Below are positions 1,683 through 35,790 of a stretch of 64,000 nt of DNA, piece by piece (the first letter of the stretch is position 1; each line of letters begins with the position of its first letter). The notes under the pieces were generated by a model that saw only the letters and a list, made by a program, of their open reading frames with translations, was not told the DNA's origin and did no database searches. A program made the translations under genes and the position numbers. This stretch comes from Escherichia coli (GTDB lineage: Bacteria > Pseudomonadota > Gammaproteobacteria > Enterobacterales > Enterobacteriaceae): the NCBI RefSeq assembly GCF_044324875.1, contig NZ_CP172185.1; one strand, given 5' to 3'.

Positions 1683-1884
1683 TGCAAAATGGCATCTGAA
1701 TCGATCGCAGTTTGGCATTCGAATCGATCATGATTTGGCATCCATCTCCGATCACAGTTTGGCATCACAATCGATCACGATTTGGCATGCTTCCGATCAT
1801 TGATTGGCATCCTGCCAGTCACTCCGGGAATTAACTCTTTTCACCACAGTCTCCATTGCCGTGTTTAAACCAGTGGAGACGTCA

Positions 1885-3450
1885 ATGTCCAGAAAGAGAA
1901 AATCCAGGAGCACTATGGAAACCTGTTTTAAGATCCTTCAGCTCAAGTTCGACAAGAAGCTGACTAACCGTTGTATCGGACTGACGTTACACATCAGCGC
2001 CTCAACCGTTTTTGAGGTTCTTGCCCGCTTCAAAGCCTCTTCTCTGTCATGGCCATTACCTGCTGATATATCCCATGACACGCTGGAGAAACTCATTTTT
2101 CCGCCCAAAGACACCTTTGCATCAGAGCTTGTAATGCCTGACATGTTGTACTTCGATACGGAAATGAGAAAACCAGGTGTGACGCGGCAACTGTTGTGGA
2201 TGGAATACAAGGCACAGGCGGGTAACAAAGCGATGGGATACTCGCACTTCTGCCGTTGCTACCGGGAGTGGAAAAAAACGCGACGTCTCTCCATGCGCCA
2301 GGAGCATCGTGCCGGCGAAAAGCTTTTTATCGACTTCTGTGGTCCTACGGTTCCTGTTATTAATCCGGACACCGGTGAGATACGCCGCGTGGCAATCTTC
2401 GTGGCCGTAATGGGGGCGTCCAACTATACCTACGTTGAAGCGTGCGAAGGTCAGGACATGATGTCATGGTTAAATGCCCACAGCCGTTGCCTGACCTTCC
2501 TGGGCGGCGTACCGAAGCTGCTCATCCCCGATAACCTCAGAAGCGCAGTGAAAAAGGCCGATCGATATGAGCCTGTCATCAACGACAGTTATCAGGCACT
2601 GGCTGAGCACTATGGCACGGTTATCATCCCGGCCCGACCACGCAAACCTAAAGATAAACCAAAAGCAGAAAACGGCGTCCTCATCGTTGAACGATGGCTT
2701 CTTGCCCGCATCCGTAATGAAACCTTCCACACGCTCAGGGCGCTGAATGCGCGCCTTAGGGAGTTACTGACAGACATGAATAACCGGCCAATGAAGGGGT
2801 ACGGCAATCAAACCCGTGCAGAACGCTTCCGCATACTGGATGCGCCAGCACTCTCTCCGCTGCCTCTGGCACCTTATGAATACACGGAATACAAAGCTGT
2901 GAAGGTTGGCCCTGACTACCACGTTGAATATGCCCGTCACTGGTACTCCGTTCCACACGAACTGGTCGGTCAGCGTCTGTCACTGAAGGCGGGGCAGTCG
3001 GTGGTACAGCTCTGGCACAAGGGGCAGTGTGTGGCGCAACATCCGCGCAGCACACATGAATATAAACACACAACCAATCCGCTTCACATGCCAGAGCGCC
3101 ACCGGCAGCACGGGACATGGACACCGGAACGCCTGATCGAGCAGGGAAAACGTACGGGCCCGTCCACAGGCCGGGTGGTTGAATCCATGCTGAAGGCAAA
3201 ACCCCATCCGGAACTGGCTTATCGTGCAGTTCTGGGGCTGCTGGCACTTCAGAAAAAATACGGCCCGGAACGGCTGGAAAAGGCCTGTTACGTTGCCCTG
3301 CACTATAACGCCCCTGACAGACGCTTTATCGACAATCTGCTGCGTCACCATCGGGAGAACCTGGAGCTTCCATTATCCCGCCAGGGCGAACAACATCCGG
3401 CATATGCTTCAGAGCATGAAAACCTGCGTGGTCCGGGCTACTACCACTGA
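1885..3450 (+). CDS. istA: IS21-family transposase IstA
   Basis: ORF track 1804..3450; N-terminal HTH-like region then integrase-fold region; start at ATG 1885 or 1915 is uncertain. Confidence 0.8.
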   Translation: MSRKRKSRSTMETCFKILQLKFDKKLTNRCIGLTLHISASTVFEVLARFKASSLSWPLPADISHDTLEKLIFPPKDTFASELVMPDMLYFDTEMRKPGVTRQLLWMEYKAQAGNKAMGYSHFCRCYREWKKTRRLSMRQEHRAGEKLFIDFCGPTVPVINPDTGEIRRVAIFVAVMGASNYTYVEACEGQDMMSWLNAHSRCLTFLGGVPKLLIPDNLRSAVKKADRYEPVINDSYQALAEHYGTVIIPARPRKPKDKPKAENGVLIVERWLLARIRNETFHTLRALNARLRELLTDMNNRPMKGYGNQTRAERFRILDAPALSPLPLAPYEYTEYKAVKVGPDYHVEYARHWYSVPHELVGQRLSLKAGQSVVQLWHKGQCVAQHPRSTHEYKHTTNPLHMPERHRQHGTWTPERLIEQGKRTGPSTGRVVESMLKAKPHPELAYRAVLGLLALQKKYGPERLEKACYVALHYNAPDRRFIDNLLRHHRENLELPLSRQGEQHPAYASEHENLRGPGYYH

Positions 3451-3466
3451 CAGAAGGAACAACAGT

Positions 3467-4222
3467 ATGAGTGATAACCTGTTAAACAAACTGACCCAAC
3501 TGAAACTCCCGGCGATGGCCGGGAGCCTGATACGGCAGCGGGAAACGCCTCAGACCTACGACGAACTGTCGTTCGAGGAAAGGCTGACGCTGCTGGTTGA
3601 TGACGAGCTTCTGAGCAGGGAAAACAGCCGTGTGGCACGGTTGAGAAAAAATGCCGGCCTGAAATACCAGGCAACACCGGAAGGGCTGCGCTATCCGGCC
3701 TCAAGAGGTCTGCGGGCTGAACAGATGAGAGAACTGCTGAACGGCCACTACATAACCCACAGGAAAAACCTGCTGATAACCGGTCCGACAGGATGTGGCA
3801 AGAGCTGGATAGCCAATGCGCTGGGCGAACAGGCATGTCGACAGAAACACAGCGTCCGGTACTGTAGAACCGGGCGATTACTGGAACAACTGGCTCAGGG
3901 ACGTGTTGATGGCAGCTGGCTGAAATATCTGAAACAGTTGCAAAAAATACAGGTTCTAATCCTGGACGATCTGGGGCTGGAACAGTTAAGTAACGCCCAG
4001 TGTAATGACCTTCTGGAGCTCATAGAGGATCGTTACGGACAAAGCAGCACGATAGTGGTAAGCCAGTTCCCGGTAGATAAATGGCATGGTCTGATGGAGA
4101 ACCCAACAACAGCAGATGCCATCCTGGACAGACTGGTACATAACTCACACCGAGTGGTCCTTCAGGGAGAGTCACTGAGGAAAAATCCCCCGGTAGTGGA
4201 AAGCAGCGAAAAAACGCGTTAA
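3467..4222 (+). CDS. istB: IS21-family helper ATPase IstB
   Basis: Walker A GPTGCGKS and Walker B LILDD motifs; ATG 3467 lies 17 nt after the istA stop; ORF track 3224..4222 is an N-terminally over-extended version. Confidence 0.85.
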   Translation: MSDNLLNKLTQLKLPAMAGSLIRQRETPQTYDELSFEERLTLLVDDELLSRENSRVARLRKNAGLKYQATPEGLRYPASRGLRAEQMRELLNGHYITHRKNLLITGPTGCGKSWIANALGEQACRQKHSVRYCRTGRLLEQLAQGRVDGSWLKYLKQLQKIQVLILDDLGLEQLSNAQCNDLLELIEDRYGQSSTIVVSQFPVDKWHGLMENPTTADAILDRLVHNSHRVVLQGESLRKNPPVVESSEKTR

Positions 4223-7268: not shown

Positions 7269-10184
7269 TTACTGAGTCAGTTTTTTTATCAGGTCGTGAA
7301 TTTTATCACCTGAAAACTGGGTCATGAAAGTTATCTTTATGGATTTACTGATTTGTTCGAAGAGTTTCTGTGCATGTTTTATTTTATCGCGTTCTTCATG
7401 TCTGAGTTCACGTTTGCCATCAACATTTTTGGTTTCAATAATAAGGTTCAGATAATCACCCTTTGACGTGTTTACAACATAAGCGAAGTCAGGGGAGTAA
7501 GTGTATCCTCCCGCTACAGGAATTTTTATTGAATTTTTGGGGATCTTTGTGAAGACAATGACTGACCTGACCTCACCCTCTGTCATATTGAGTTTTTCAA
7601 GTTCTGAATCATAAAATACTTCTTCAAAAAGATAAGAGTCCAGTGGAGGGCTTGTATTATCCTGTAAAACGCCAAGATCACTTGACAATACATCAGCAAG
7701 ATAACCGCCGTCTGCATTGGTGAATTTCGTGGGATGGACAGTTCCTGATATTACATTATACCCAAGGCTGAATTTACTGAACGAGTTATTAAGCAAATAC
7801 TTGCTGAAACCAGATTTAATTTTTCTGATTGTCTGAATGTTAAGGTATTCAGTTATATTTATGATGTCTTTTATATCACAAAAAACCTTATGCATGGTGT
7901 CATGTTTGACAAAAATAGTCTGTGATAATTTATCAAGGAATTCACGATAGCTCATTGTGTTTATTTTGTGAAAATTATCCTCATCAACACTGAGAATGCT
8001 TTTCGACATTGCCGTATCATTATGGATATAAATTCTTTCAATACGAGTATGAGCACCGGATTTGGTAAATCTGTCTGCTTCTTCCAGCATAAACGCTCTG
8101 AAAAGGGATAAAAACTCACGTTCACTTTTTATTTTATACTCAATCACGACCTTTTGATTGATCAAGTCCCATAGTTCTTTCAGCTCACTGAACTTACCAA
8201 CACGCATTTTAGTGCGTCTTTTTCCATCAGAGGCTTTTTTTATTTTGCCTGGTTTCACTCCTGCAGGAAATGCTGCCGGATATCTGGCTTTTAAGCGGCT
8301 ATAGGCATCTGAATCTTTGAAGTTATCATTATCATCAATGATCTCATCATCAAAAATTTCATTCAAGAGTGTTCTGGAGGAAAGCTCCGGATATTGAGAC
8401 AGGATTTTATCCTTAAGTTCCTGAGTAAACTTACCTGGAACAGTCTCTTTGAAAGAACTATCGTTGATCTCTTTGACAAGAGAATCGACAAAATCTTTTT
8501 CTGTAAAATCAACATAATAGTTGAGGGTAAAATTGCGGTCTTTCACACGACACATGTATTCATTCACCGGAAGACGTAAACCACGCCCTACTTCCTGAAG
8601 TTTAGATGTGGTGCTACCGCTCGAACGGAGCTTACAAATCTGAAAGACATTTGGGTTATCCCATCCCTCACGCAACGTCCATTTAGAGAAAATGAAACGG
8701 CGAGGATTTTCTAAAGACAATAGAAGCTCTTTATCATGAAGGATTTCGTTGATTTCCTGCTCAATTTTATCATCTTTATCACTATTATCTTTTGAAAAAT
8801 AACCACCATGAACAGAAGATATATCCTTAACAGTTTTTTCAAGGTAGTTTCTGTAAAACTCATCTTTTTCTGTTTTTAACAGTTCATTTGCTTCTGCCAA
8901 AACGTATTCTTCGAACTTAGTTTTCAGGCTTCCTGCAATATCATTACCATCACGATAGCCTTCAATGTCATCAATGAAGAAAAGAGTAAGAGGTTTTATG
9001 CGTGGCCTTTGTGTCAGATACTCTTTTTCTAACTTAAAGTGTTCTTTGACAGCTTTACGTATCATGTTATCAGCAAGTGTCTGATCGTAAGAATAGGGGT
9101 TTATCGAACTACCAATTTTTAGCTCAATACCATTACTCAACACTGCTGTATTCTTATTTAAAGCATCAAGAGTTAAATCATGGATCGCACTATGCGTCTT
9201 AGATAGTGATTCACCTTTGGCTAACTTAAAAATTTTTTTATTATTATTTTCGTTCAGTTCAAATGTAGCTTCTTTTCCGTCAGATTTGACCAACTTGAGG
9301 TTGGCATTACCATCACCAACTATATCCTCAATGTATGCATCAATACCTTTAACAAGATCTTCATTGAAGGCATCTACGGCTGTAAGACGATAAACTAAGT
9401 TCTTATATCCTTCACTAAAGGTTGCACCATAGCGGATGATATATTGGGCATTAAATTTTTGAATATGTTCCCATGTCTTTTTACCAGTAGGAAATTTATG
9501 AGGCTCATCAATGATAATGAATGGTTTTATCGCACTAAGTGCAGAAAATGGGGTATCAAACTGATTATTAAGCAAGCCAACATCATAAGTGTCAGTTAAA
9601 GACTTAGAGTTAATCATCCCTGAATTGATCACAAGAATGTGTATATATTTCTTATTGAAATTACTTGCTTCAACAAAATCATGGATAGCTTGAGGCATAT
9701 ACGATTTTGTATTTTTACCCGAACGTTTCTGACTTTCAACAACGTAAGTCTTTAGTTCACGCTCGTAATCATCTCGAAAGTGTTCTTTTATAGCATCGCT
9801 TTTTAAAAAGTTAACGGTTCCGGCTTTGATCGATAGGGTAGGAACAATGATGATAAACTTGTTAATACCAAATGATTTGTTCAGGTCAAAAATTGTTTTG
9901 GTGTAAGTATAAGTTTTACCTGTACCTGTCTCCATAGAAACATCAATTACGTTGCTTTTAGCATCGTAATTATCTTTTGAGTGCTCAATACCATTGAACT
10001 CCTGAACATTTTTTATGTTGTTGTAGTATTGTTGTTCAGATAGATTCAGTTCTGGATTAGCTAACAGGCGAATTGCAACATGATCCGTCTGATGAGGTAT
10101 GGCGGATACAAAGACATTCATTACCGAATCAACGCCAGCCTTTTGATGAGGTAAATTTTTTTCGAATGTGAACCCTTTAGACAT
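7269..10184 (-). CDS. res: Type III restriction endonuclease Res subunit (helicase-nuclease)
   Basis: 971 aa; Walker A METGTGKTYT, DExH-like IIIDEPHKF, C-terminal PD-(x)n-ExK-like SPDFAYVV...IIETK; directly downstream of mod with a 2-nt gap; AT-rich. Confidence 0.85.
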   Translation of the reverse strand: MSKGFTFEKNLPHQKAGVDSVMNVFVSAIPHQTDHVAIRLLANPELNLSEQQYYNNIKNVQEFNGIEHSKDNYDAKSNVIDVSMETGTGKTYTYTKTIFDLNKSFGINKFIIIVPTLSIKAGTVNFLKSDAIKEHFRDDYERELKTYVVESQKRSGKNTKSYMPQAIHDFVEASNFNKKYIHILVINSGMINSKSLTDTYDVGLLNNQFDTPFSALSAIKPFIIIDEPHKFPTGKKTWEHIQKFNAQYIIRYGATFSEGYKNLVYRLTAVDAFNEDLVKGIDAYIEDIVGDGNANLKLVKSDGKEATFELNENNNKKIFKLAKGESLSKTHSAIHDLTLDALNKNTAVLSNGIELKIGSSINPYSYDQTLADNMIRKAVKEHFKLEKEYLTQRPRIKPLTLFFIDDIEGYRDGNDIAGSLKTKFEEYVLAEANELLKTEKDEFYRNYLEKTVKDISSVHGGYFSKDNSDKDDKIEQEINEILHDKELLLSLENPRRFIFSKWTLREGWDNPNVFQICKLRSSGSTTSKLQEVGRGLRLPVNEYMCRVKDRNFTLNYYVDFTEKDFVDSLVKEINDSSFKETVPGKFTQELKDKILSQYPELSSRTLLNEIFDDEIIDDNDNFKDSDAYSRLKARYPAAFPAGVKPGKIKKASDGKRRTKMRVGKFSELKELWDLINQKVVIEYKIKSEREFLSLFRAFMLEEADRFTKSGAHTRIERIYIHNDTAMSKSILSVDEDNFHKINTMSYREFLDKLSQTIFVKHDTMHKVFCDIKDIINITEYLNIQTIRKIKSGFSKYLLNNSFSKFSLGYNVISGTVHPTKFTNADGGYLADVLSSDLGVLQDNTSPPLDSYLFEEVFYDSELEKLNMTEGEVRSVIVFTKIPKNSIKIPVAGGYTYSPDFAYVVNTSKGDYLNLIIETKNVDGKRELRHEERDKIKHAQKLFEQISKSIKITFMTQFSGDKIHDLIKKLTQ

Positions 10185-10186
10185 GA

Positions 10187-12223
10187 TTAGTTTCTTACCA
10201 CCAAATCTAAATCAATAGATTTTTTATTAGCATAACTTTTTAGTGCTTCATTGAGTTCCATCTGTTTCGCACTTTCGAAGTTGCTGCCATAAAATACAAC
10301 TTTGTTAGGGGCAAAGTCTTTGTCTGCATCCAGCTTTTGAAGTAAAGCTTTCAAAGCCTCACTTGTGAAATTAGGCGCAATTAGATATAGCCGACCATCG
10401 CACAAGTGTGCTTTGTAGCCATTAAGGTCAATATCTTCAATTGGTGTTGTTAGCAAGCTGCCATCATACACGCACCATGTCGTCAATAGAGTGTCATACT
10501 GCTCTGGTGTCAATACAGCATCGTCAAAGAAACTAAGATTAGAAAGCGTAAGTTCAGACTCATCTTTCACTCGAAAATTATGAACTGTTTCAAATATTTT
10601 AAATCCCAAATCTCCATTATAATTAGGATTATCTTTTTTCAGCTTTTTTCCTGCCTTAATAATTCTGTCTTTTGTTATATTGAAGATGGATTTATACCCT
10701 TCTTTATAGGCTTGTTTCTTTTTATCTGTTTCTTCATCTAATTGAACACAGATGAAGTTTCTTTTCCTGCCGTCTTCAATATTTAACTCCAGAATACCAT
10801 GAGCTGTAGTTCCAGAGCCAGCAAAAAAGTCAAGATAAATGTCTTTATCTTCGGTTTTTACTGAACCAAATAGTGTTTTTATTAAACTTGTTGGCTTCGG
10901 GTAGGAGAAATATCCTTTCCCACCAAAAAGATTTTCAACCTCAACACCACCATCACTTTTAGTTGAAATAATTGATCTTAGTAAAAACTCTTCAACTTCA
11001 TCTAAAAATTTAACCGAACTGGGTTGGGTGTTTTCTGTACTGGCAAACCAAATTCCACCACAAATAACGCTACCATCATGTAGTTTTTTGATATCTGCAT
11101 ACTTTCCATCTATTCTTTTTGCAATATGATTAAAAGTGCCTTCTTTCCAACGCCAGCCTCTGTCTGGGATTTTGACAGGGTTATTAGTCAAAGGGTGCAA
11201 TACTTCATACGTGGGTCCAAATGAATCTGCATTAGGCCAGCTCATATTAATTTTACCCCATGGCCTATAATCTTCGTTCAAACAGTTGTAAAGAGTAATT
11301 CCACGATCATATCCGTTGGAGCTGTAGAATTTTTTGAGTTGCTGCTCTGCTTTATCTAATGGCACCTTCTCCTTTTTTAACTTTTCAATAAACTGATATA
11401 CATCATCAATACCATCTTTCCGCATTAAAAATTCTTTACTTATTTCGTTATTCTTCGCATAAGCAAGGATGTACTCATGGATATTACCAATACCCTTATC
11501 ATTTTTAGGGATACGTTTATTCCATACAATATTTTCTATGAAATTTGCTTCGCCAAAAATTTCATCACAAATAGTTTTAAGTTGATTTAATTCATTTTCG
11601 TCAATCGAAATAAATATCACACCATCTTCACGTAGAAGCTCACGAGCAATATATAAACGAGGATAAATGAACGTTAACCATGCGCTATGGCTGCTTGAAC
11701 CATTCGTGGTAAATTCAAGTATACGTTTAGCCTCATCAAGATCGATACCTGCCAGATCAGAAAGCTGTTCAGGTGTAAACTTGCGATCATCGTTATAGGC
11801 GAATCCATCCTTACCTGTATTGTATGGTGGATCAATGTAAATCATCTTCACCTTTTCAGAGTAAGCATTAACCATATGCTTCAATACTTCGAGGTTATCC
11901 CCTTTGATTAACAGATTCTGACTGTTTTTGTTCTCTTCACGTTGGTTATGGTCTTTATCTTCGGAGAGTAATGTCTTCGGCGGCAAGTTAGCTAACAGAC
12001 GGGCATAGGATTTACCAAGCCAGTTCAGGCTGTATGATTCTTTGGAGAGTTCAACATCCGATGATTTGACGATTTCAAGCAATTTTTCCTGAATGAACGC
12101 TCCATTTTTATCAAAACACTGTGGAAAGTTAGCCTTTAAAATCGCAAGCTGTTTACTGTTTGTGGTTTCAGTTTCAGAGAAAAGAGTTTCTTTTTTCAGT
12201 TGAAATTGGGGTTGTGTATTCAT
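10187..12223 (-). CDS. mod: Type III DNA methyltransferase Mod (N6-adenine)
   Basis: 678 aa; motif IV IYIDPPYNTG before motif I LDFFAGSGTT (beta-class order typical of Type III Mod); strong GGAGG RBS; ATG 12223 overlaps the stop of the upstream leader ORF. Confidence 0.9.
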   Translation of the reverse strand: MNTQPQFQLKKETLFSETETTNSKQLAILKANFPQCFDKNGAFIQEKLLEIVKSSDVELSKESYSLNWLGKSYARLLANLPPKTLLSEDKDHNQREENKNSQNLLIKGDNLEVLKHMVNAYSEKVKMIYIDPPYNTGKDGFAYNDDRKFTPEQLSDLAGIDLDEAKRILEFTTNGSSSHSAWLTFIYPRLYIARELLREDGVIFISIDENELNQLKTICDEIFGEANFIENIVWNKRIPKNDKGIGNIHEYILAYAKNNEISKEFLMRKDGIDDVYQFIEKLKKEKVPLDKAEQQLKKFYSSNGYDRGITLYNCLNEDYRPWGKINMSWPNADSFGPTYEVLHPLTNNPVKIPDRGWRWKEGTFNHIAKRIDGKYADIKKLHDGSVICGGIWFASTENTQPSSVKFLDEVEEFLLRSIISTKSDGGVEVENLFGGKGYFSYPKPTSLIKTLFGSVKTEDKDIYLDFFAGSGTTAHGILELNIEDGRKRNFICVQLDEETDKKKQAYKEGYKSIFNITKDRIIKAGKKLKKDNPNYNGDLGFKIFETVHNFRVKDESELTLSNLSFFDDAVLTPEQYDTLLTTWCVYDGSLLTTPIEDIDLNGYKAHLCDGRLYLIAPNFTSEALKALLQKLDADKDFAPNKVVFYGSNFESAKQMELNEALKSYANKKSIDLDLVVRN

Positions 12224-12432
12224 AACGCACCTCCAGAATGCACGGAGGTACTTGACGCGGAATTTTTATACAGGCATATTGTTGCGTTGCGTTGCGTTGC
12301 GTTGCGTTGCGTTGCGTTGCGTTTCGTTGCGTTGCGTTGCGTTGCGTTGCGTTGCGTTGCGTTGCGTTGCGTTGCGTTGCGTTGCGTTGCGTTGCGTTGC
12401 GTTGCGTTGCGTTGCGTTGCGTTGCGTTTCAT
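12220..12432 (-). CDS. repeat-containing leader ORF, 70 codons, MK(RNATQ)n..., translationally coupled to mod
   Basis: ATG at 12432 with GAGG 7 nt upstream; the whole pentanucleotide tract is inside the ORF; TGA stop overlaps mod ATG (ATGA). Confidence 0.4.
   Translation of the reverse strand: MKRNATQRNATQRNATQRNATQRNATQRNATQRNATKRNATQRNATQRNATICLYKNSASSTSVHSGGAL
12281..12430. repeat. pentanucleotide tandem repeat (GTTGC)n, 30 units, 28 perfect
   Basis: Read directly: 8 perfect units, GTTTC variant at 12321..12325, 20 perfect units 12326..12425, GTTTC variant 12426..12430. Confidence 0.95.
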
Positions 12433-12465
12433 TAAATAGCCTCGAGTTTCGTTTTACAGGTTTTT

Positions 12466-12494
12466 ATTCTAACCTGAATTGTTGATTTTCTGAA
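12466..12494 (-). promoter_or_regulatory. candidate sigma70 promoter for the leader-mod-res transcript (-35 TTCAGA, 17-nt spacer, -10 TAGAAT)
   Basis: Hexamers read on the minus strand upstream of the leader RBS; no experimental support. Confidence 0.25.
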
Positions 12495-12505
12495 TAAGTC
12501 TGACG

Positions 12506-12680
12506 TCAGTTGTTACGGGAAGGTATCAGAGTGGCTAGATGCACTGTGGCACGTCTCATGGCGGTTATGGGGCTTGCCGGCGTTCTCCGGGGGGTAAAGC
12601 TCCGTGCTACTGTCACCTGGAACGCCGTTGCCGCAGGCGACCGCGTAAACCGTCTGTACCGCCCGGGCCCAATATTAAGA
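12506..12680 (+). pseudogene. IS3-family transposase (OrfB-like) internal fragment, degenerate
   Basis: Translation LLREGIRVARCTVARLMAVMGLAGVLRG...AVAAGDRVNR resembles the middle of IS3-family OrfB; no start; homology ends abruptly. Confidence 0.5.
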
Positions 12681-12709
12681 ACTAACGTCATACCAGGGAC
12701 GTTGTCTGA

Positions 12710-13723
12710 ATGGATGAGAAGCTAAAACATGCGGATTTATCGTCTTTGCCAGAGCAGGTGAGGGTTGCCGCTAGGGAGCTTGTTGACCTGAAGTTTCGTA
12801 TCGATATGGCAGCAAGAGGCGGTACGTCAGGGATACCACTTGACCTGCATGGGAGGATGACAGGAGGAGAATGGGGGCCGCATTGCGGGCTGGAATTTTT
12901 CTGCAGCATCATTCCTTTTTTCCCGCGAGATTTTGAAACCTGTTCAGTAACTGAAATGTTGGTTCCTACCTTACATACCTTCGGCTGCAACTGGCGTTGG
13001 TGGCCCGATCGTTATTGTAGCGACAAAGATGAACACTATATACGGCGTCACATTTTTTCTGATTACGGGCTGAAAAGTACGAGCTATACCTTCATTCCTC
13101 AGTTGGGATTGTTCTGCCCGAGTGAAGGTAAAAATCGTGTTAACTTCTGCCGCCATCACGGTATCGAATATATCCCCGCACAGGTTTATTCCCATGATTA
13201 CCCAGAAGCAAATCGAATCTCTGTGTACGTTCAGGATACTGCCGGAGGGCTGGATGTGTGGGCCGTTCTTGATAATCGCTATGTTCAGAAGGTTACTCAC
13301 TATGCCTTTGCGCTCCCACTTTTGTGCGCTTATGGGGTAGAGTTCCCAGGTAAGTGGCCAGCAGGATGGCCATCGATATCGGACCTCCTGGCTAATCAAC
13401 TGTGTTGCACTGATGACACAACCTTTCATAAACCCGTGATCGATATGCAAGCTGTCAGGGATACGCTGGATCGTGATGAGAACAGCAGAGAGGATGGGGA
13501 GATGTATGTCAAAACCAATGTGGTTGAGCTGCCGCTGGCCGGGCTGGTTCGCTTCATTCTGATCGCAATGTTACTGAGTTTAGGTGCGTTGTTCATCCAC
13601 GAGGTACTGGATGAGGGAAGCCTGTCCAGGATTGCACTGGGAATAAGCACTTTCACGGCTGGCGTGGTTGCTTCGTTTTTTATCCCAGCGTTCCGTATCA
13701 AGAAAAAATATCTTCGCAAATAG
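12710..13723 (+). CDS. hypothetical protein with two C-terminal transmembrane helices (337 aa)
   Basis: ORF track; Cys/Trp-rich soluble part, then hydrophobic helices and a KKK tail; no recognised domain. Confidence 0.35.
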   Translation: MDEKLKHADLSSLPEQVRVAARELVDLKFRIDMAARGGTSGIPLDLHGRMTGGEWGPHCGLEFFCSIIPFFPRDFETCSVTEMLVPTLHTFGCNWRWWPDRYCSDKDEHYIRRHIFSDYGLKSTSYTFIPQLGLFCPSEGKNRVNFCRHHGIEYIPAQVYSHDYPEANRISVYVQDTAGGLDVWAVLDNRYVQKVTHYAFALPLLCAYGVEFPGKWPAGWPSISDLLANQLCCTDDTTFHKPVIDMQAVRDTLDRDENSREDGEMYVKTNVVELPLAGLVRFILIAMLLSLGALFIHEVLDEGSLSRIALGISTFTAGVVASFFIPAFRIKKKYLRK

Positions 13724-35714: not shown

Positions 35715-35790
35715 TGGTGCCCGGAGGCGGAATCGAACCACCGACACGGGGATTTTCAATCCCCTGCTCTACCGACTGAGCTATCCGGGC
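35715..35790 (-). tRNA. pheV: tRNA-Phe (GAA), pheV-type, with variant T-stem
   Basis: 76-nt cloverleaf GCCCGGATAGCTCAGTCGGTAGAGCAGGGGATTGAAAATCCCCGTGTCGGTGGTTCGATTCCGCCTCCGGGCACCA; anticodon GAA; located beside yqgA. Confidence 0.9.

Follow-up and report, generated by a model that had tools for sequence, protein, structure and literature searches.

In the published phase-variable mod genes of Type III restriction-modification systems, the repeat tract lies inside the open reading frame (ORF) just past the ATG (PMC10123105; PMC1557822). A locus on a 64,000-nucleotide stretch of Escherichia coli DNA (contig NZ_CP172185.1, assembly GCF_044324875.1), referred to here at its full length as the window, resembles these classical genes in two respects. 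Like modA of Haemophilus influenzae and Neisseria, modP and modQ of A. pleuropneumoniae, modS and modM, it carries a repeat of strain-variable unit number at the 5' end of a Type III mod gene, and like them it has conserved ends around a variable central recognition domain (PMC1557822; PMC10123105). The ON state of a classical mod gene is an in-frame fusion, whereas no frame at the window locus can fuse the tract to mod: the tract is housed in a leader ORF of its own, whose stop falls on the mod start. The window mod has its own Shine-Dalgarno (SD) sequence and ATG, its partner Res is intact, and the frame in phase with mod is closed by a TAA or a TGA, unlike in the classical genes. From the sequence and the predicted RNA folding, we lean toward phase variation of a complete EcoP15I-family Type III system by frame-dependent translational coupling through the leader ORF.

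M.Eco131I from E. coli that makes Shiga toxin (STEC), with CAGCGAC[n] in its annotated ORF, was reported as pathogenic E. coli's first phase-variable methyltransferase and came from a survey of repeats within annotated mod genes (PMC5909438). Because that survey looked inside annotated mod genes, it would have missed a tract in a leader. Like M.Eco131I, the window locus belongs to E. coli and has a methyltransferase gene whose 5' end carries a long repeat of strain-variable length; it is unlike it in that the M.Eco131I repeat is a heptamer within an annotated ORF. CAGCGAC tracts also occur on enterobacterial prophage contigs (L101-L119; e.g. L106 7693-9816), where ATGCTGCCAGAC-(CAGCGAC)n is fused in-frame to a 707-amino acid (aa) hsdM-like N6-methylase with no similarity to the window Mod; they have the M.Eco131I repeat unit, and the gene may or may not be M.Eco131I. 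Their n ranges from 8 to at least 55, and L101 carries 55, 25 and 20 units with small interruptions between them. A search with the CAGCGAC-encoded peptide found nothing, probably owing to low-complexity filtering.

The closest protein relatives of the window system are EcoP15I and EcoP1I, which share its order of mod then res and the gap of 2 base pairs (bp) between them. Unlike at the window locus, no repeat tract has been described for either, and there is none in the repeat-less relatives LF82 (L012) and L022. Mod genes of this kind start 8 codons later, and in LF82 and L022 the junction has no leader ORF and no SD hairpin visible by eye. LF82 has the window's recognition domain, and its mod stands behind an unrelated 120-aa ORF; the LF82-type junction, in which no such inverted repeat is seen by eye, was not folded. 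Where repeat-less mod genes carry the window's recognition domain (L012 2620-2982, LF82; L018 about 2222-2505, Pantoea), the 120-aa ORF is conserved and ends 12 nucleotides (nt) before mod. It has a weak ParC-like match (E = 0.003).

In the MS2 coat-replicase pair, the MS2 lysis gene restart and ermC, translation of an upstream ORF opens structure over a downstream SD, and termination next to a downstream start permits reinitiation. Upstream translation in MS2 and ermC is constant or modulated by stalling, whereas in the proposed window switch it would be set heritably by repeat number. A possible parallel is lex2A/lex2B of H. influenzae, in which a small upstream ORF with a tetranucleotide tract precedes a transferase gene; lex2A figures in published papers as a repeat-bearing gene. 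It would share with the window locus a repeat in an upstream ORF governing the next gene, while the genes and the organism differ. A CACAG pentanucleotide tract was reportedly found by Ryan and Lo in 1999 with the PhaBI Type III system of Pasteurella haemolytica. In a review, the PhaBI-associated repeats are placed within the mod gene (PMC3874151). No literature description was found of the window tract in any rotation, of the leader layout, or of translational coupling combined with phase variation. An earlier interpretation of the window from its letters, here called the sequence-only reading, had likewise failed to match the layout to a described system. By a leader-coupled layout for which the literature searched gives no precedent in Type III systems, gain or loss of one repeat probably switches the defence system on or off.

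The leader ORF, its tract and the mod start

The features of the locus are listed below by window position.

12466 to 12494, minus strand: promoter-like site TTCAGA-17 nt-TAGAAT, 5' of the leader (predicted by consensus scan)
12440 to 12443, minus strand: leader SD sequence GAGG, 7 nt before the leader ATG (sequence reading)
12220 to 12432, minus strand: leader ORF of 70 codons, MKR(NATQR)n...SGGAL (ORF reading and frame simulation)
12281 to 12430, minus strand: pentanucleotide tract of 30 units, open in all three frames (Tandem Repeats Finder and frame simulation)
12266 to 12268, minus strand: TAA closing the leader frame in phase with mod, 5' of the hairpin (frame simulation)
12227 to 12251, minus strand: RNA hairpin GUACCUCCG / UGGAGGUGC, 9 bp with a 7-nt loop, pairing the mod GGAGG (predicted fold)
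12174 to 12176, minus strand: TGA ending the read-past leader frame (frame simulation)
10187 to 12223, minus strand: mod, Type III N6-adenine methyltransferase of 678 aa, EcoP15I family (PDB 4zcf_A, PADLOC)
7269 to 10184, minus strand: res, Type III restriction endonuclease of 971 aa, intact (NCBIfam, PADLOC)

Re-reading confirmed the positions that the sequence-only reading had given for the tract, the leader ORF, the mod start and the GGAGG, as well as its view that the tract lies in a separate leader ORF coupled by ATGA to a Type III mod gene. The leader ORF begins 2 nt ahead of the tract. On the minus strand the tract reads GAAAC, (GCAAC)20, GAAAC, (GCAAC)8, with the perfect 20-unit run at 12425..12326, and Tandem Repeats Finder gives a period of 5 with 29.6 copies and 98% matches (12281..12428). 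A 150-nt tract of perfect period is far beyond chance, and it is the sole microsatellite in the window. The cyclic peptide that it encodes is identical in all three frames. A 57-nt spacer separates the tract from the mod ATG at 12223, and the leader TGA (12222..12220) overlaps this ATG (12223..12221), forming ATGA. RefSeq annotates the leader ORF as "hypothetical protein" in several genomes, and the leader peptide had no match to any family in a protein family search.

Both promoter-like hexamers are kept in all window-type alleles, and their aligned counterpart in L095, a diverged allele from E. coli strain 48, is TTAACA/TAAAAT. The leader GAGG is kept in all alleles, as GAGG-N5-ATG in L095. 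An extended -10-like element, TGTATAAAA, stands directly 3' of the tract. A role of the tract as a promoter spacer was considered and rejected, as the sole promoter detected by the scan lies 5' of the leader and the -10-like element past the tract is not kept in L095.

Since the unit is 5 nt long, each gain or loss of a unit shifts the leader frame. The three outcomes proposed earlier were reproduced by frame simulation, with one distance corrected. With the present n units the leader stops on ATGA. With n-1 or n+2 units it stops at the TAA at 12268..12266, 45 nt upstream of the mod A; this TAA starts 13 nt past the tract and not about 25 nt as first stated. With n+1 units the leader crosses the mod start and closes, about 16 codons on, at a TGA that lies 47 nt beyond the mod A within conserved mod coding sequence. 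Fusion within one ORF was not found in any allele: the in-phase frame stops at the TAA (-45) in all window-type alleles and at a TGA (-50) in L095.

The mod GGAGG (12234..12230) lies inside the leader ORF and forms the 3' arm of the predicted hairpin. The hairpin has a predicted energy of -14.9 kcal/mol (z = -2.35) and pairs 8 of the 9 SD-zone bases. By prediction the leader mRNA as a whole is far less structured than its shuffles (z = +5.6), and the hairpin is the sole stable element in the centroid fold. A few natural substitutions in the stem change G.U pairs to G-C or U-A and thereby strengthen them. The start regions of 155 repeat-less Mod-relative loci served as controls; their median is -3.3 kcal/mol, and the window hairpin is stabler than 93% of them, 7% being as stable. 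Four of the five repeat modules considered in this work have SD-paired start regions, at -11 to -15 kcal/mol. The 11 stable repeat-less controls were considered as a repeat-less version of the design, a view that was rejected: they come from a single EcoP15I-like cluster whose upstream stretch is rich in GC and whose start was mis-picked. A hairpin predicted to sequester the SD would supply a reason why coupling matters.

The proposed mechanism depends on the remainder of the unit number on division by three. With n mod 3 = 0, ribosomes translating the leader would traverse both hairpin arms, melt the hairpin and terminate on AUGA. Mod would then be made by termination-reinitiation, and Res would follow through the 2-nt mod-res junction; this would be the ON state. 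With n mod 3 = 2, the leader would stop at the TAA, which lies 45 nt upstream of the mod A and leaves about 17 nt to the hairpin. Given the ribosome footprint, about 17 nt between a stop and a hairpin base is too far for a ribosome to open the hairpin. The hairpin would stay closed, and Mod and Res would be poorly made, giving an OFF state. With n mod 3 = 1, ribosomes would melt the hairpin but cross the mod start in another frame and continue for 47 nt, for which our guess is reduced or intermediate Mod expression. As the tract is never part of Mod, the enzyme would be identical in every state.

Tract length among isolates and the layout in other modules

Unit number was compared between isolates, as the sequence-only reading had suggested, and it varies from 8 to 48 between near-identical flanks. 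Among 5,426 complete E. coli genomes, 11 others carry the locus with near-identical flanks and have 48, 31, 14, 34, 26, 26, 20, 8, 35, 38 and 38 units, beside 30 in the window. A 13th complete genome has the diverged L095 allele with 21 units, and a clonal set of eight draft assemblies has 15. Genomes with the identical Mod accession WP_086624633.1 have 48 and 31 units, and those with WP_021577922.1 have 14, 34 and 26. The tract spans 40-240 bp among isolates, and uninterrupted runs reach 47 perfect units. All three frames occur. The leader is in the coupled frame with 30 and 48 units (and with 15 in the draft set), in the read-past frame with 31 and 34, and in the early-stop frame with 8, 14, 20, 26, 26, 35, 38 and 38; the 13 complete genomes comprise 2 coupled, 8 early-stop and 3 read-past. 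The tract is hypervariable between isolates. Its 5-nt units shift the leader frame and its unit number varies while the flanks are conserved, and the locus is almost certainly a contingency locus.

The carriers include poultry-associated strains (among them an avian pathogenic E. coli isolate), chicken meat isolates and Shiga-toxin-producing strains. Two carriers with an inactivated mod keep the tract, namely L008 (IS1 after about codon 7, about 1890-2667, 8 units) and L009 (frameshift, 1940-3762, 35 units). Draft assemblies tend to break right at the tract, as a long repeat would lead one to expect. A metagenome scan for the hairpin gave one contig with the window allele and 4 units, which may be a collapsed assembly and was left out of the counts. 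Only two relatives of the leader peptide were found among 5.8 billion proteins, not enough to survey the frames across a population. The junction has no copy in the plasmid collection, and the GCAAC tract end has none in the viral contigs. A 76-aa E. coli hypothetical protein (P0122) has an apparent 1-nt indel in the A-run just past the tract (TATAAAAATT), which shifts the coupled leader frame to read-past; slippage could thus also occur, more slowly, at the A-run as a second site. In an assembly labelled Salmonella enterica, a contig of 783 nt (L204 1-60) begins at the second base past the tract, and its spacer and mod start are identical to those of E. coli. It reflects either spread across genera or a mislabelled or contaminated assembly.

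The leader can be found joined to more than one recognition domain. In L010 and L011 the leader and the first 150 Mod alignment columns are as in the window (100% identical), while the centre is 22-56% identical and the central recognition domain differs from the window's. The recognition domain thus varies behind a conserved 5' repeat region, as in phasevarions. In L095 a diverged leader and N-terminus are joined to the window's recognition domain. The N-terminus MNTQPQFQ is found only together with this leader. On these comparisons, the leader behaves like a movable 5' cassette to which various mod alleles can be attached. The last 145 nt or so before the leader, including part of a remnant of an IS3-family transposase, accompany the cassette even in L010, where the sequence beyond them is different.

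L095 differs from the window in its upstream sequence, in a 5' leader that is 12 nt longer and in most of its spacer. It keeps the promoter-like hexamers, GAGG-N5-ATG, (GCAAC)21, the hairpin and ATGA. Its frames stop on ATGA, at the in-phase TGA at -50 (a different codon from the window TAA) or, reading past, at +48. The unique C-terminal part of the leader is not conserved between these two E. coli alleles.

A cross-species scan (one genome per species, the Mod N-terminus as query) covered 80 loci and showed a repeat upstream of mod in 2 of them: (ACGC)7 in Pelistega indica and (ACAAGCCT)n in Bisgaardia hudsonensis. Both have a start codon directly before the tract, in Bisgaardia as AAGGA-N7-ATG. 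In each, a single frame terminates on the ATGA of the mod start; the remaining two close 33-50 nt upstream of it, the in-phase one at -38 or -39. Bisgaardia has a predicted hairpin sequestering SD and AUG (-14 kcal/mol, z = -2.5). The Pelistega mod (L060 2461-2510) carries an insertion of 1 nt some 40 nt from the start of its ORF, with the leader in the coupled frame, and is either a pseudogene or the product of a sequencing error. The start of the Bisgaardia leader (L202 1236-1250) and that of the CAGCGAC methylase (L106, about 7693) both read AAGGA-N7-ATGCTGCC right before differing tracts, a likeness that may reflect a shared start module or coincidence. A viral contig scan added L140, a prophage contig with ATG-(CACAA)16. 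Two of its frames stop just past the tract; the third stays open for 41 more codons, up to a TAG that lies 6 nt inside the mod start region, and the GGUGGUG of that region is predicted to be paired.

All five modules have a start codon ahead of the tract, a single frame that extends to the mod start, and a block in the frame in phase with mod; in none of them can the tract be fused to Mod. ATGA joins leader and mod in all E. coli alleles, Pelistega and Bisgaardia, and the TAG takes its place in L140. The leader peptides are wholly different between modules (NATQR, THAR, TSLQAYKP and HNTTQ). In Pelistega, Bisgaardia and L140 both non-coupled frames stop upstream, and E. coli alone shows a read-past frame. 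With two early-stop frames in the other taxa, the third, read-past state, which the sequence-only reading took to be occluding, is, as far as sequence comparison goes, not part of the conserved design; the conserved logic, on the simulated frames, is one coupled frame versus two uncoupled ones.

Proposed coupling and its alternatives

Several observations weigh against the coupling mechanism. The mod SD is strong, so that some independent initiation is likely. The TGTATAAAA element just past the tract could be an independent promoter, though it is absent from L095. In Pelistega the predicted structure is weak (-4.3 kcal/mol), the leader SD is poor and mod is frameshifted in that assembly, and in L140 the leader SD is far from its ATG. 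Frame counts among the isolates do not show which state is ON and are confounded by relatedness. When the spacers were shuffled, the geometry arose with P about 0.3 at each of the short-spacer loci and 0.06 at L140. Treating all five modules as independent gives a joint P of 4e-4, and counting the pair of E. coli alleles as one gives about 1.5e-3; since ATGA starts are common, this statistic is modest and suggestive, not overwhelming. Taking it together with the start codon that stands right before every tract and with the hairpins, present in four of the five, we judge the design to be selected.

One alternative is that the tract acts by its length and not by its frame. It would then be a variable 5' untranslated region (UTR) or a promoter-distal spacer that grades transcription, mRNA processing or stability, and the leader ORF would be incidental. 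The tract does lie between the predicted promoter and mod, its span among isolates is 40-240 bp, and a heptamer repeat in the 5' UTR upstream of H. influenzae hmw1A gives documented length-dependent control (PMC12721329). However, the tract RNA is predicted to be unstructured and has no complementary partner nearby, and a pure spacer needs no start codon before the tract, no frame ending at the mod start and no in-phase block, all of which are present in every one of the five modules. We regard control by length as unlikely. It is similarly improbable that the tract is a decayed or neutral microsatellite, left over from a classical in-ORF mod repeat that a stop codon and a new start within the gene have severed, with Mod made constitutively from its GGAGG or from a promoter past the tract. 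Such decay would fit the strong mod SD, the TGTATAAAA element that follows the tract, the carriers in which mod is inactivated (by IS1 in L008 and a frameshift in L009) and the early-stop frame, which is in phase with mod and is the commonest (8 of 13 complete genomes). Yet contingency-locus tracts are expected to shorten and gather interruptions without selection, whereas long uninterrupted tracts of up to 47 perfect units persist here. The SD-sequestering hairpin also persists in the two diverged E. coli alleles, L095 lacks the -10-like element, and three bacterial families whose repeat units are unrelated share the stop/start geometry.

A function of the repeat peptide (NATQR)n itself, for example as a regulator or an antigen, is very improbable. 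An open, translatable ORF with an SD and the same cyclic peptide from all three frames would be in keeping with it, but the peptide has no family match and just two relatives in the 5.8 billion proteins, the peptides of the other modules are wholly different, and the unique C-terminal part is not kept between the E. coli alleles. The conserved geometry of start, stop and hairpin agrees less well with any of these three alternatives than with frame-dependent coupling.

A broader proposal is possible, and we make it tentatively. The cassette of promoter, SD, ATG, frame-neutral repeat, SD-sequestering hairpin and AUGA may represent a widespread, unrecognised class of switch that would make any downstream Type III mod-res operon phase-variable by termination-reinitiation while leaving the enzyme unaltered. 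Its repeat unit would have diversified across Enterobacteriaceae, Alcaligenaceae, Pasteurellaceae and prophages, it would give three heritable levels in E. coli, and it would have been missed by surveys inside annotated mod ORFs.

The restriction-modification genes, their surroundings and significance

Mod residues 9-678 match PDB 4zcf_A (EcoP15I Mod) with E = 9.5e-242, and Mod scores 771 bits against PADLOC MTase_III. Res scores 1074 bits against NCBIfam NF012027 (cut-off 564) and 1600 bits against PADLOC REase_III. The res ATG lies 2 nt past the mod TAA; EcoP1 has the identical 2-bp mod-res gap, and its res is thought to be translated by reinitiation (PMC3874151). By these matches the locus is a complete Type III restriction-modification system and a close relative of EcoP15I.

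The locus sits in an island with a tyrosine recombinase, insertion sequence (IS) remnants and decayed toxin-antitoxin genes. The tyrosine recombinase ORF is at 17979-19361, and a tRNA-Phe gene lies at 35715-35790 (minus strand), about 23 kilobases (kb) from the locus; the region resembles one or more tRNA-Phe-associated islands. The closest complete genomes cover just 83-87% of the first 20 kb of the window. The remnant of the IS3-family transposase (window 12506-12691 region) adjoins the leader promoter region, and a plus-strand ORF of 337 aa nearby (12710-13723) has no family match. Tandem 23/47-nt repeats (TGGCAT...CGATCA), each with GATC, at 1690-1811 lie directly 5' of an IS21-family transposase ORF (1804-3450). 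They are most likely IS21 multiple terminal repeats and are unrelated to the mod tract.

In host-adapted pathogens, Type III methylases that vary in phase are known to act as epigenetic switches. If the proposed mechanism is true, the window locus would be a second case of a phase-variable methylase in E. coli, beside the sole reported one, and would differ from it in layout and mode. Catalogues built on repeats inside annotated genes would then undercount phase-variable restriction and methylation systems. The host is genetically tractable, and the mechanism is open to direct testing. Since Res is intact, the switch would also toggle a barrier to phage and DNA uptake within a clonal population.

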